Shown: one piece after another, positions 49,817 through 59,224 of the stretch | Layout: every line of letters begins with the position of its first letter | How positions within the stretch are numbered: the first letter of the stretch is position 1 | Source of the DNA: Escherichia coli | Lineage (GTDB): Bacteria; Pseudomonadota; Gammaproteobacteria; Enterobacterales; Enterobacteriaceae | Assembly: GCF_003334765.1 (NCBI RefSeq) | Contig: NZ_QOWT01000007.1 | Strand: one strand, 5' to 3' | DNA: 64,000 nt | The notes under the pieces: model-generated | Seen by the model: the letters and a program-made list of their open reading frames with translations, nothing else | The model's database searches: none | What the model was told of the DNA's origin: nothing | Made by a program: the position numbers and the translations under genes

Positions 49817-50290
49817 CTAATCTCTCAATACCGCTCCCGGATACCCCAACTGCCGCCAGGCTTCATACACCACTACCGACACCGCATTGGACAGATTCAT
49901 GCTGCGGCTGTCCGGCACCATCGGAATGCGAATTTTTTGTTCAGCGGGCAGGGCATCAAGAATGCTCGCTGGCAGGCCGCGTGTTTCCGGGCCGAACATC
50001 AGATAATCGCCATCCTGATAGCTTACGGCGCTGTGAGCAGGTGTACCTTTCGTGGTGAGGGCGAACAGGCGCTGGGGATTTTCTGCTTCGAGGAACGCGC
50101 GATAGTCATGATGACGCGTAACGGCGGTAAACTCGTGATAGTCCAGCCCCGCGCGGCGCAGGCGCTTATCGTCCCAGGCAAATCCCATCGGTTCGATGAT
50201 ATGCAGACGAAAGCCGGTATTAGCGCAAAGACGGATGATGTTGCCAGTATTTGGCGGAATTTCTGGTTCGTAAAGTACGATGTTTAGCAT
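49817..50290 (-). CDS. trmL: tRNA (cytidine/uridine-2'-O)-methyltransferase TrmL
   Basis: 157-aa SpoU-family [44 protein letters not shown]... Confidence 0.9.
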
Positions 50291-50487
50291 ACTGCCCCCT
50301 TAGTGCGGGGGCAGGATAGCAGAAAATTGGTGAGCAGTGCGGCCTTTTCCCCTCACCCCGGCCCTCTCCCCGGAGGGGCGAGGGAGAAAAAAAGAGTGCG
50401 GTGTCGTTTCAGAGTGAGGGAGTACATACAGCGCCGAACGGTCCCCTCTCCCTGAGGGAGAGGGTTAGGGTGAGGGGGCGCAAACGA
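50291..50487. repeat. cluster of GC-rich palindromic repeats (box C-like CCCTCACCC/CTCTCC...GGAGAGG arms) between trmL and lldD
   Basis: Two imperfect palindromes (cccctcaccccggccctctccccggaggggcgagggag and cccctctccctgagggagagggttagggtgaggggg); the same arm motif recurs at 57107-57165 and 57275-57308. Confidence 0.7.
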
Positions 50488-51678
50488 CTATGCCGCATTC
50501 CCTTTCGCCATGGGAGCCAGTGCCGCAGGCAACTCTTTACCCAGCCCCTGCACCAGCGAATCTTGCGTAATTTCGCTGATCGATTTCGCGCCAGTCAGCG
50601 TCATCGCCACTTTCATCTCTTTTTCGATCAGATTTAGCAGGTTAGCTACACCCGCCTGGCCCGCTGTTGCCAGCGCATACAAGAAAGCACGACCCAGCAG
50701 TACGGTATCGGCACCGAGCGCAATCATACGCACGACATCAAGCCCGTTACGAATTCCGCTATCCGCCAGAATGGCTATATCACCTTTCACCGCATCTGCA
50801 ATAGCAGGCAGTGCACGGGCGGAAGAGAGTACACCGTCCAGCTGGCGGCCACCGTGGTTAGAAACCACAATTCCATCAGCACCAAAACGTACTGCATCGC
50901 GCGCATCTTCCGGATCGAGGATCCCTTTGATCACCATCGGGCCATCCCAGAAATCGCGGATCCATTCAAGGTCTTTCCATGAGATGGACGGATCGAAGTT
51001 ATTCCCCAGCCAGCCGATGTAATCTTCCAGTCCGGTCGGTTTGCCGAGATAAGCTGAGATATTACCTAAATCATGTGGACGACCGTTCAGGCCCACATCC
51101 CACGCCCATTGCGGATGTGTCACCGCTTGCAAGTAGCGGCGCATTGCCGCGTTCGGGCCGCTCATACCTGAATGCGCATCACGGTAGCGTGCGCCCGGTG
51201 TCGGCATATCCACGGTGAAAACCAGCGTCGAACAACCCGCTGCTTTTGCTCGCTCCAGCGCGTTACGCATAAAGCCGCGATCGCGCAGTACATAAAGCTG
51301 GAACCACATTGGGCGCTTGATGGCTGGCGCGACTTCTTCAATCGGGCAAACGGAAACCGTCGAGAGAGTAAACGGAATACCATGCGCGTCCGCCGCTTTG
51401 GCTGCCTGAACTTCGCCACGACGCGCATACATGCCACACAAACCCACCGGAGCCAGTGCCACCGGCATCGACAATTTCTCATTAAACAGCGTCGTTTCCA
51501 GGCTTAAGTCGGACATGTTTTTCAGAATACGCTGGCGCAGCGCCACTTCTGACAAATCTTCCACGTTGCGGCGCAGCGTGTATTCAGAATATGCACCACC
51601 ATCCATATAGTGGAACAGGAACGGCGGCAGAATGCGTTGCGCTGCGGCGCGATAATCGCTGGCTGCGGAAATAATCAT
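50488..51678 (-). CDS. lldD: FMN-dependent L-lactate dehydrogenase
   Basis: 396-aa [45 protein letters not shown]... Confidence 0.95.
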
Positions 51679-54394: not shown

Positions 54395-54447
54395 AGCGCC
54401 TTATCTTGCCGGATGCGGCGTGAACACCTTACTCGGCCTATAGGAAT
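54395..54447. repeat. REP element downstream of yibL
   Basis: gcgccttatcttGCCGGATGCGGCGTGAACACCTTACTCGGCCTAtagg, REP palindromic-unit signature. Confidence 0.6.
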
Positions 54448-55933: not shown

Positions 55934-57081
55934 TATTGCATTGCTTTATAAGCGGTTACCGCCTCGGATACAACCTCGCTGTTGGCATCAAGACCGGAAA
56001 TCTGTGCCAGCGCCGCCTGCGGACCTTTGTCAGCGATCAGTGCTGCCAGTTCCTGAGCCTGCGGATCATCTTCACTGCGGAAGTGCATTGCAGCGGCAAT
56101 ACCTTCAATCAGGTTTTTATGTGGCAGACCATATTCCAGCGTACCGAGCAGTGGCTTGATCAGACGGTCGCCAGCACTCAGTTTACGCAGTGGCTGACGG
56201 CCTACGCGCTCTACATCATCTTTCAGATACGGGTTCTCAAAACGGCCGAGAATTTTCTGGATGTACGCCGCATGCTTGTCAGCGTCAAAGCCGTAGCGCT
56301 TGATCAATACTGCACCACTTTCTTCCATCGCACCTTTTACCACCGCGCGGATTTTCTCGTCGAGAATCGCGTCACGAATGGTCTGATGACCGGCCAGTTT
56401 TCCGAGGTACGCGGTTATAGCATGACCCGTGTTCAGGGTGAAGAGTTTACGTTCGACAAATGCCATCAGGTTGTCGGTTAACTCCATGCCTGGGATGTTC
56501 GACAGTGCGCCTTTGAACTGCGTTTTATCGACAATCCATTCGCTGAAGGTTTCTACCGTCACTTCCAGCGGATCGTTAGTTGCCGAAGCCGAAGGCGGTA
56601 CGATGCGGTCAACGGCGGAATCGACAAAGCCAACGTGTTCTTCTACCCACGCTTTGGCGTCTTCCGGCAGGGCGTTCATCACATGGCCTTTCAGCTGCGT
56701 GGTACCGCGTACCATGTTTTCACAGGCGATGATGTTCAGCGGGGATTCATTACCTTGTTCTTTACGTTTCACCAGCCCTTTGGCGATTGCCGGAGCAATA
56801 CGTTCCAGCACAACCGGGCCAACGGCGGTAGTGACTAAATCAACCTGAGCAATCAGATCAACGACATCATCACCAATGCTGCTGACAGCATTGACGCCGG
56901 AAACGGTATCTACCTGCTCGGTTTCACCAACCACATGTACCTGATAGCTATGACGGGCATTCAGGGCATCAAGTACCACCTGATTGACATCGGCAAACGT
57001 CAGTTGGATACCCGCGTCTGCCAGCAGTTTACCGATAAAGCCACGACCGATATTACCTGCGCCAAAATGTAATGCTTTCAT
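55933..57081 (-). CDS. mtlD: mannitol-1-phosphate 5-dehydrogenase
   Basis: 382 aa from ATG 57081 ([24 protein letters not shown]...); the longer tool ORF reads through the REP region upstream. Confidence 0.95.
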
Positions 57082-57106
57082 AGTATTAACCTTCATCAAT
57101 GTTTTT

Positions 57107-57308
57107 ACCCGAGAGGGCTGGGGTGAGGCTTTTCCCTCACCCAAACCCTCTCCGTGAGGAGAGGGGCAGCGCCGGATGCGGCGTAAGCGCCTTATCCGGC
57201 CTACAAGAACGTGCAAATTCAACAAATTGTGATGCATCCTGTAGGCCTGATAAGCGTAGCGCATCAGGCAATTAACCCCACCTTCTCCATGTGGAGAGGG
57301 TGGGATTG
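57107..57308. repeat. BIME-type cluster: two inverted REP units (57171-57204, 57237-57270) flanked by box C-like palindromes, between mtlA and mtlD
   Basis: GCCGGATGCGGCGTAAGCGCCTTATCCGGCCTACA and inverted TGTAGGCCTGATAAGCGTAGCGCATCAGGCA; flanks gggtgaggcttttccctcacccaaaccctctccgtgaggagagggg and ccccaccttctccatgtggagagggtggg. Confidence 0.8.
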
Positions 57309-57310
57309 GA

Positions 57311-59224
57311 TTACTTACGACCTGCCAGCAGTTCCAGCACTTCATCCACGCTGGTGGTGTGTGCCAGACGCTCGATGACGGACTCATCATCCAGTGCATT
57401 GGTCAGGCTGGTGATAACCTGAATGTGCTCGTTGTTACGGGCAGCAATACCAATCACCAGACGGGCAATGTCATCTTCTTCTTCACCGAAGCGCACGCCT
57501 TCCGGGTACTGGCAGAACACGACGCCCGTTTTCAGTACGCGATCTTTCGCTTCAACCGTACCGTGTGGCACCGCGATAGACTCACCCAGATAAGTCGGGG
57601 TCAGTTTTTCACGATCCAGCATCGCCTGAACGTATTCCGGCTCAACGTAACCGCCTTTCACCAGCTGCTCGCCAGCAAAACGAATCGCTTCTTCTTTGGT
57701 TGCCGCTTTGCGACCGAGGAAGATGTTCTCCGCGCCTAGCTTGAACAGGTTAGCACTGGAATCGTCAAAGCTGTCTTTCAGGCTGTCTTTTACTTTCTCT
57801 TCGTTTGCCGTGTGGCGTTGGGCAGCAACCAGACGTTCGGTCAGGCTGGTGTACAGGCCGCTGTCGAGGAAGTTGGTCAGCGAAATATGCTGTGCCTGCG
57901 GAACCTGGCGCATAGCGCGTTCGGTCAGGTCACGGTGAGTGATGACGAGGTCCACATCTGGCGGCAGGTTGTTGATCGCGCTGTTAGTAACAGAAATCTG
58001 CGACAGACCTGCATCCTGAATTTTCTTACGCAGAACGCCTGCGCCCATCGCACTGGAACCCATACCGGCGTCACAGGCAACGATGATTTTACGTACGTGG
58101 CTCAGGTCGTTAGTCACATCGCCAGCAGACAGCGGAGATGCGCCTTTAGACTCAGCTTTCATGTCCTGCATACGACGAGTTGCTGCTTCAATATCATCTT
58201 CTTCTTTCACTTTGCTGGTTTTCAGCAAAATAGCAGAGACAACGAAGGAGACAGCCATCGCCGCACACACACCCGCGATGTTAGCGAAGTAAGCACCTTT
58301 TGGTGTCATCGCCAGTACAGCAAGGATAGAACCCGGAGATGCCGGAGAAACCAGACCACCGCCCAGGATAGTCAGCGTGAACACGCCAGTCATACCGCCG
58401 AGGATGACTGCGAGGATCAGACGCGGATTCATCAGCACATACGGGAAGTAGATTTCGTGGATACCCCCCAGGAAGTGGATGATTGCCGCACCGCCCGCAG
58501 ACTGTTTAGCGCTACCACGACCAAAGAACATGTACGCCAGCAGCACGCCCATACCTGGACCTGGGTTAGCTTCAATCAGGAAGAAGATTGATTTACCCAG
58601 TTCATGGGACTGCTGAATACCCAGCGGCGAGAAGATACCGTGGTTAATGGCGTTGTTGAGGAACAGGATTTTCGCCGGTTCAACAAAGATAGACGCCAGC
58701 GGCAGCATGTCATGGACAACCATGAAGTTAACGCCCGCAGCCAGCATTTTGGACAGGGCTTCAACAATCGGGCCAATGCCGAGGAATGCCAGAATAGCGA
58801 GGATCATCCCGATGATGCCTGCGGAGAAGTTATTCACCAGCATCTCAAAACCGGATTTGATCTTACCGTCTACCCAGCGGTCGAAGTGCTTAATGCACCA
58901 GCCGCCCAGCGGACCTGCAATCATAGAACCGAGGAACATCGGCATGTCTGCGCCGACGATAACGCCCATGGTGGTGATGGCACCGACTACGCCGCCACGT
59001 TCGCCGCCTACCAGCTTACCACCGGTATAACCGATCAGCAGCGGCAGGAGATAAGTGATCATCGGCCCGACCAGCTTCGCCAGCGTCTCGTTCGGTAACC
59101 ACCCTGTTGGAATAAATAACGCGGTGATGATACCCCACGCGATAAACGCGCCGATATTTGGCATCACCATGTTGCTGAGGAAACGACCAAAGCTTTGCAC
59201 TTTGATCTTAATATCGGATGACAT
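57311..59224 (-). CDS. mtlA: PTS mannitol-specific EIICBA component
   Basis: 637-aa [42 protein letters not shown]... Confidence 0.95.

Follow-up and report, generated by a model that had tools for sequence, protein, structure and literature searches.

GC-rich palindromes recur in the trmL–lldD and mtlA–mtlD spacers of a K-12-like stretch of Escherichia coli DNA (64 kb, analysed in full and called the window below), and the question raised by this locus is which repeat family they represent and whether any of the copies serves the genes beside it. By their sequence the sites are assigned, as members or derivatives, to the enterobacterial intergenic repeats known as BoxC (Bachellier/Gilson/Hofnung), as PIT elements (Hoyne and Maher 2000, 2002) and as TMECO (Holder et al. 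2015, PMC4666352). The family itself has already been described, and novelty is limited to how deeply the copy in the mannitol operon is conserved. Taken as a whole, the explanation which we regard as reasonably likely combines this family membership with an apparently dispensable trmL–lldD pair and an ancient mtl element that would have been domesticated as an RNA structure of the mtlADR transcript. To our knowledge, BoxC/TMECO sequences have been around in the literature for about 30 years with no function assigned, and we know of no mobilising enzyme or associated transposase.

A BoxC unit starts with a pyrimidine block, CCCTCTCCC, which a short loop separates from its purine complement GGGAGAGGG; a 3-nt linker then leads to another purine block, GGGTGAGGG. 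The unit folds into a hairpin, and its single-stranded DNA forms an intrastrand triplex in vitro. The TMECO pattern, CCCTCNCCC-N3-6-GGGNGAGGG-N3-GGGNGAGGG, has 23 copies in MG1655, inverted pairs being composed of one type-A (linker TTA) and one type-B (linker CCG) unit, and TMECO loci were described as unusually variable or unstable, with 'palindrome effect' deletions (Holder et al. 2015, PMC4666352). In eight K-12 loci that were read directly, type-A units were preceded by CGGTC, and type-B units were preceded by TTTTCT and followed by CATCAGCGCGCAC.

The window represents the reverse strand relative to MG1655, around 3.77-3.78 Mb, and its two spacers have the MG1655 lengths, 197 nt (trmL–lldD, from the trmL start codon at 50288-50290 to the lldD stop at 50488-50490) and 229 nt (mtlA–mtlD, from the mtlD start at 57079-57081 to the mtlA stop at 57311-57313). 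Within it, the motif CCCTCTCC-N(3-12)-GGAGAGGG was matched twice (50444-50464 and 57146-57165; 0.00 expected), CCCTCACCC three times (50350, 50468 and 57134; 0.28 expected) and the double purine block GGGWGAGGGNNNGGGWGAGG (GGGWGAGGG-N3-GGGWGAGG, at most two mismatches) four times (0.00 expected), at 50351-50370 and 57135-57154 on the minus strand and at 50456-50475 and 57109-57128 on the plus strand. A profile HMM built from 21 published K-12 copies, with the window's own two left out, matched at 50443-50476 and 50350-50384 in the trmL–lldD spacer and at 57134-57165 in the mtl spacer (E-values in Table 1), with an additional partial unit at 57111-57128 (E 0.21); beyond these four, the scan of the 64 kb gave nothing else of note. 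Every family site in the window lies in an intergenic spacer. The recurrent motif reported in the preliminary description, once in the trmL–lldD spacer and on both sides of the REP pair between mtlD and mtlA, was thus recovered above chance (four matches, none expected) at the first place and in the mtl element, while the third site holds it in part only.

When the whole window was compared with Rfam 15 at the gathering score, JUMPstart alone passed, and there was no family for the BoxC element. The JUMPstart RNA (RF01707, 24200-24238, plus strand; 53.1 bits against a gathering score of 35 bits) is a known element. A permissive Rfam search of 57050-57350 gave naRNA4 as its best match (38 bits against a gathering score of 59.5 bits), located on the REP and not on the element.

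Table 1. Positions in the window of the repeat units and neighbouring features in the trmL–lldD and mtlA–mtlD spacers
Feature	Position	Strand	Basis and remarks
BoxC/TMECO type-B unit	50349..50384	-	TMECO 18 in Table 1 of Holder et al. 2015; profile E 5.2e-9
59-nt segment between inverted units	50385..50443	.	replaced or deleted in other E. coli alleles
BoxC/TMECO type-A unit	50444..50477	+	TMECO 17; profile E 1.3e-9
mtlD A-rich leader and Shine-Dalgarno AAAAACATTGATGAAGGTTAATACT	57082..57106	-	alignment A3; mean pairwise identity 0.75-0.78
Truncated inverted partner	57107..57128	-	inverted repeat I1 (18 nt, 89% complementary); covariation; two near-equal folds
mtl BoxC unit, type-A-like, 8-nt blocks	57134..57165	-	profile E 0.0015; canonical 9-nt orthologues elsewhere
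Direct-repeat copy 1	57145..57165	+	copy 2 at 57280-57300, 135 nt apart (D1)
Inverted REP pair (BIME) with IHF-like site (about 57217-57229)	57168..57270	.	REP consensus; arms I3 and I5; naRNA4 below threshold
16-bp hairpin, 4 nt past the mtlA stop codon	57274..57307	-	I4, D1; no profile match; E. coli and E. albertii

Two inverted units, rather than the single motif noted at first, occupy the trmL–lldD spacer. The type-B unit reads CCCTCGCCCC-TCC-GGGGAGAGGG-CCG-GGGTGAGGGG, with one mismatch and the family-typical left flank TTTTCT, and the type-A unit reads CCCTCTCCC-TGA-GGGAGAGGG-TTA-GGGTGAGGGG, with CGGTC on its left as in other K-12 copies; the flanks of both units agree with those of the eight loci read directly. 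Both fit the TMECO pattern and are exact, letter-for-letter matches to entries of the published table, given there for MG1655 as 3,781,061-3,781,028 (TMECO 17, type A) and 3,781,121-3,781,156 (TMECO 18, type B) and placed by the supplement between lldD and trmL (Holder et al. 2015, PMC4666352); the label 'box C-like' that the units had been given was accurate. Their outer blocks form a 22-nt inverted repeat (50349-50370 / 50456-50477), and the A/B inverted pairing conforms to the published rule.

The window's trmL–lldD spacer is identical to that of K-12. Matches to this K-12-like query came from 5,421 E. coli genomes and reached a coverage of 80% or more in only 3,522, and spacer alleles of 197, 185, 154, 72 and 47 nt occur. 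The 185-nt allele has lost one copy of a 12-nt direct repeat, the centre has been swapped for a 34-nt palindrome (CTGTCTCTTGATCAGGAGATCTGATCAAGAGACAG) in the 154-nt allele (about 1,013 E. coli genomes), and no BoxC sequence is left in the 47-nt allele. This variety agrees with the published hypervariable TMECO loci, and because the spacer is indel-polymorphic among E. coli, the pair looks like an indel-prone dispersed copy that is dispensable and has no local role. The 154-nt allele looks like the remnant left by an IS that had inserted into the BoxC pair. Filled and empty sites were compared and showed no target-site duplication, the flanks themselves differing between alleles. On the relevant strand of this spacer no terminator- or promoter-like site was found, the sole site in a terminator scan of 50200-50600 lying inside trmL on the wrong strand.

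The palindrome CTGTCTCTTGATCAGGAGATCTGATCAAGAGACAG, as present in E. coli O145 RM8843-C1 (L003), equals the 3' end of an IS4-family transposase gene or an IS end in strain 536 (L099:2001-2034), and resembles the IS50 inside end. At the other border of the spacer, an 11-bp GC-rich hairpin at 50289-50317 (ATACTGCCCCC / GGGGGCAGGAT) lies over the trmL Shine-Dalgarno sequence and start codon, and it is unchanged in every spacer allele, including the 'empty' one of 47 nt; because of this invariance, the predicted hairpin could mask the trmL ribosome-binding site.

In the mtlA–mtlD spacer, the element (57107-57165) is composed of a type-A unit and a truncated inverted partner, and has the layout CCCTCTCC-TCAC-GGAGAGGG-TTT-GGGTGAGGG-AAAAG-CCTCACCC-CAG-CCCTCTC-GGGT in mRNA sense. 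The unit comprises Y1 (CCCTCTCC, 57158-57165), a loop (57154-57157), R1 (GGAGAGGG, 57146-57153), the linker TTT and R2 (GGGTGAGGG, 57134-57142), and the partner comprises Y2 (CCTCACCCC, 57120-57128), the linker CAG, which is also that of TMECO 8, Y1' (CCCTCTC, 57111-57117) and a conserved GGGT (57107-57110). The partner can pair with R2 alone (hairpin H2) or with R1 and R2 together (long hairpin). Owing to its first and second blocks of 8 nt, the E. coli mtl unit fails the strict TMECO pattern, which is why this copy is missing from the table and supplement of Holder et al. (2015); its profile score is 15 bits, against 33-35 bits for other copies.

Between the element and the mtlA stop codon, the REP consensus GCCKGATGCGRCG occurs with 0 mismatches at 57171-57183 (match region 57170-57200), and the sequence of the REP pair is found at many places per genome. 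A scan of 50291-50487 for the REP consensus gave no match; since the trmL–lldD spacer is without a REP, the proximity to REP units that had been put forward for three loci applies to the mtl spacer only. The exact REP consensus GCCGGATGCGGCG is also present at 54408-54420, in another spacer of the window. Because ATTCAACAAATTG (57217-57229), situated between the REPs, differs by inspection from the IHF consensus WATCAANNNNTTR at one position only, the mtl REP pair looks like a REP-IHF-REP (RIP / BIME-1) element. Terminator and gyrase/IHF-site properties have been reported for REP/BIME elements. The gyrase or IHF function suggested for the palindromes belongs to those reports and not to BoxC, the IHF-like site that is present being part of the REP pair.

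The third site (57274-57307) contains no CCCTCACCC, no GGGTGAGGG/CCCTCACCC block, no double-block match and no profile match at E<=100. It fails BoxC membership, having in common with 57145-57165 only the CTCC-loop-GGAGAGGG core (18 of 21 nt, 86%). The hairpin is best interpreted as duplicating part of the Y1-loop-R1 hairpin rather than as a full BoxC unit, since the repeats in the TUM10828 allele share the loop too. Among the examined species, the REP pair and the third hairpin were found in E. coli and E. albertii only. In O157:H7 and others, the spacer measures 94 nt; exactly 135 nt have been lost, a length equal to the spacing of the direct repeats, and the REP pair and hairpin are gone, so that this allele is attributed to recombination between 57145-57165 and 57280-57300. 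The O157:H7 allele marks the REP pair and the extra hairpin as later additions, losable without harm; being confined to Escherichia and deleted in O157:H7, the REP pair and second palindrome cannot be the conserved functional part.

Of 5,426 E. coli genomes, 5,405 carried the element itself, 4,831 of them with at least 99% identity. When mtlA–mtlD spacers were fetched from 80 species, the five-block element was found in all 66 spacers of the Enterobacteriaceae type, where it ends about 25 nt upstream of the mtlD start and the distance to the leader and Shine-Dalgarno sequence is fixed in all orthologues. It spans at least 25 genera at one position (Escherichia, Citrobacter, Salmonella, Klebsiella, Enterobacter, Kosakonia, Cedecea, Buttiauxella, Siccibacter, Franconibacter, Mangrovibacter, Pluralibacter and others), the orthologues in other genera having canonical 9-nt units; the K-12-derived profile gave 19-42 bits in 42 species, at -84 to -100 from the mtlD start. 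The shortest spacer of this type is 92-95 nt. Mean pairwise identity was 0.85-0.95 in the blocks, compared with 0.52 at four-fold degenerate mtlD positions, 0.43 for the loop and 0.33 for the region upstream. Insertions of REPs, an ERIC-like element and other hairpins are confined to the interval from the mtlA stop to the element and never interrupt the element. A BLAST search with a 63-nt query against 28 Gb returned the orthologous locus alone because short partial matches fall beyond the E-value limit. Since the element occupies the same place across the Enterobacteriaceae, it probably has a role for the mannitol operon. A literature search, which covered a 2026 paper on mtl regulation and had the original BoxC/PIT lists outside its range, found no described mtlA–mtlD intergenic element and yielded neither 3'-end nor processing-site nor expression data on the mtl spacer.

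Spacers of three loci (L016, L019 and L055) have an insertion of about 125 nt between the mtlA stop and the BoxC element that contains GTGAATCCCCAGGAGC...GTGACTGGGGTGAGCG, which we take to be an ERIC/IRU repeat, and three others (L060, L066 and L073) have an extra BoxC unit in the same interval. Two unrelated GC-rich hairpins occupy an equally long spacer (about 94 nt) in Pantoea and a few others. These Pantoea-type spacers (L074, L077-L079, L081-L087, L089 and L090) show tandem hairpins, GGGGCGGGCAAGCCCGTCCC ... GGGGCGGATTTGCCCGCCC, followed by a T-rich stretch, an analogous architecture.

Conservation of the mtl copy could also result from homogenisation against other genomic copies, or from a constraint at the DNA level. 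According to the first of these, all copies would be selfish or neutral repeats, the mtl copy included, which would simply be old, tolerated and held near the consensus by gene conversion or by the mechanism that spreads the family. We consider this unlikely, even though the family consensus is nearly alike in many genera and a type-B unit in a Cedecea spacer (L066) is almost identical to the E. coli trmL–lldD unit, flank included. In Maher's work, as far as it is cited by Holder et al. (2015, PMC4666352), PIT/BoxC sequences were without promoter or terminator activity and without in vivo effect. These results, obtained on other copies, weigh against a function of the mtl element and suit neutral repeats, as does the flux seen at other BoxC loci. 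The E. coli mtl copy, however, departs from the E. coli consensus in its 8-nt blocks, its TTT linker and its profile score, and is therefore not being homogenised; none of the 66 spacers has lost it, and its distance from mtlD stays fixed while loci nearby vary, and REP, ERIC and hairpin insertions are found upstream and not within it. In contrast to the mtl element, BoxC pairs located 2.2-2.8 kb downstream in the fetched loci are present, amplified, degenerate or absent across Enterobacter species, a locus in flux between congeneric species. There, at about +2160 to +2830 from the mtlD start, five loci (L031, L033, L035, L025 and L029) have a head-to-head A/B pair of BoxC units as in trmL–lldD; tandem amplification of partial units is seen in L031 and L035, degenerate remnants in L052 and L046, and a different sequence in L038 and L069.

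Secondary structure was assessed on an alignment of 67 sequences. In the long hairpin (R1+R2 with Y2+Y1'), 91.5% of alignment cells were paired, and seven pairs had changed on both sides, compared with 2.3 +/- 0.6 in shuffled controls (0 of 500 reached the observed number) and with all slid controls, which lay below it; RNAalifold independently predicted the same hairpin. This count refers to the long hairpin and leaves H1 (Y1:R1) outside, since in alignment A3 the Y1 blocks are out of register owing to loops of different length, and R1 hardly varies. The compensatory changes sit in the linker and in R2:Y2 and are for the most part supplied by few lineages (L075, GGGAAAGGG/CTTTCCC; L057, GGGTGAAAGG/CCTTTCACCC; L056, CCA/TGG; L023, TTC/GAA), while the R1:Y1' helix showed no both-sided change in the 67-sequence alignment. 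Sequence conservation in the stems goes far beyond the needs of a simple hairpin. The stems contained 49 G·U cells in mRNA sense versus 6 A·C cells, an excess that fits pairing of the sense strand, with strand-biased mutation as a conceivable alternative. A second fold, made of Y1:R1, R2:Y2 and a small CCC/GGG hairpin, had a mean energy of -33.9 kcal/mol against -34.4 kcal/mol for the long hairpin, and was the better one in 28 of the 67 sequences. The full E. coli mtl spacer was predicted to form a chain of six hairpins (z = -8.2).

The predicted mRNA-sense fold also pairs the mtlA stop region (GUCGUAAGUAA, 57298-57320) with the mtlD start region (UUAAUACUAUGA, 57072-57090), closing the spacer. 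This helix, predicted without a control, is strong in Escherichia and Citrobacter and weak or absent in many genera, and it could reflect either translational coupling or a folding artefact.

The constraint at the DNA level is best considered together with these base-pair changes. Under this explanation the G-rich strand, when single-stranded, would form an intrastrand triplex (H-DNA-like) that stalls polymerase and causes rearrangement, at mtl perhaps as a pause of transcription or replication. Triplex formation in vitro (CD, NMR) was measured on other TMECO copies, polymerase stops have likewise been published, and in the account given by Holder et al. (2015, PMC4666352) the triplex went undetected by in vivo footprinting. 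Besides those in vitro results and the variability of TMECO loci, slippage-type deletions at trmL–lldD (for example the 12-nt loss in the 185-nt allele) are compatible with a triplex, and by the triad rules the mtl unit retains 8 of 9 valid triads in E. coli and all 9 in 35 of the 67 aligned spacers, in many genera. The mtl copy is nevertheless the opposite of unstable. When triads and pairs were counted over the 67 orthologues, only two lineages discriminated between triplex and hairpin, and both favoured the hairpin; the changes in L075 (GGGAAAGGG/CTTTCCC) and L057 (GGGTGAAAGG/CCTTTCACCC) keep the Watson-Crick pairing of the third block and break the triplex rules. That the elements act at the DNA level appears to us improbable.

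The weakest rival is that the mtl spacer structures act as a terminator or attenuator which reduces read-through into mtlD-mtlR. The position of GC-rich hairpins between two genes of an operon invites this explanation, and in Pantoea-type spacers the second hairpin is followed by a T-rich stretch, yet a search of 57000-57400 for terminator-like sites (stem and T-run) found 0 on either strand, the element is followed by GGGTAAAAAC and not by a U-run, and PIT elements were inactive as terminators in the published assays. With no terminator-like site on the relevant strand of either spacer, the terminator role entertained in the preliminary description is not upheld, and we give this rival hardly any credence. 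A promoter scan of the mtl spacer found no promoter-like site on the relevant strand. Open reading frames in the spacer are mechanical only: the mtlD frame is open across its whole length, but a coding function was rejected because the spacers of other species have lengths that three does not divide.

Our best guess for the mtl element, on the basis of its conservation and covariation, is a domesticated intercistronic RNA structure. An ancient type-A unit with a truncated inverted partner has been kept about 25 nt upstream of mtlD and would have been domesticated to give the mtlADR transcript a very stable structure. This structure may take the form of either two to three tandem hairpins or one long hairpin, and may act between the cistrons by blocking exonucleases or directing processing, so that mtlA and mtlD-mtlR are decoupled in decay or translation. 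The differential mRNA stability suggested for this copy in the preliminary description gains plausibility from the conserved position across enterobacterial genera and from the compensatory base changes. More specifically, and only tentatively, the mtl BoxC pair might be a bistable cis-acting RNA that sets the relative stability or translation of mtlA and mtlD-mtlR throughout the family.

Comparison with known systems places the two loci differently. The trmL–lldD units share with BoxC/PIT/TMECO the three-block motif, the intergenic site and the A/B inverted pairs, being entries 17 and 18, and their locus shows the published hypervariability and 'palindrome effect' deletions, whereas the mtl copy has 8-nt blocks in E. 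coli, is uncatalogued, stable and orthologous across genera, and its partner unit is reduced to two pyrimidine blocks. REP/BIME elements, including RIP, resemble BoxC as small GC-rich extragenic palindromes, often in alternating orientation, but have a different consensus (GCCGGATGCGGCG...). REPs are mobilised by RAYT transposases and stabilise upstream mRNA, for example in malE–malF. The REP pair at 57168-57270, between the BoxC element and the mtlA stop, is Escherichia-specific and lost in O157:H7, unlike the BoxC element. MITEs and REPINs are similar to BoxC in their dispersed copies, conserved ends, inverted doublets and presence/absence polymorphism, and likewise in that unit and flanks are alike at non-orthologous loci in E. 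coli, Cedecea and Enterobacter; the lack of a target-site duplication at the filled and empty trmL–lldD sites sets BoxC apart from them. Intercistronic hairpins that stabilise or process mRNA are known from the malE–malF REP and from the pap and puf operons. Like the mtl element, these are very stable stem-loops in an untranslated intra-operon spacer, where products are needed in different amounts; the mtl element differs in its origin from a dispersed repeat and in the competition between its two folds. A further intra-operon BoxC unit, TMECO 19 (K-12 3,908,495-3,908,530, L095), lies between pstA and pstB and offers a natural comparison for the mtl copy.

What is ordinary in these results is the recognition of a known family; what is new is that one of its members is ancient and fixed in the mannitol operon. 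Fixed in E. coli, held at one position and with compensatory changes, the mtl copy contradicts the published instability of BoxC/TMECO loci, and it is therefore the obvious copy in which to test for a cellular role of BoxC. Mannitol-1-phosphate is described as toxic in PMC11784389, so the balance between the MtlA transporter and the MtlD dehydrogenase matters, which makes the mannitol operon a good test setting. For annotation, the lesson is that a strict published pattern overlooks degenerate yet conserved members. If the mtl pair does act as a bistable RNA, a function would for the first time be demonstrated for a BoxC/TMECO copy, and this would suggest how dispersed repeats may seed regulatory RNA structures.
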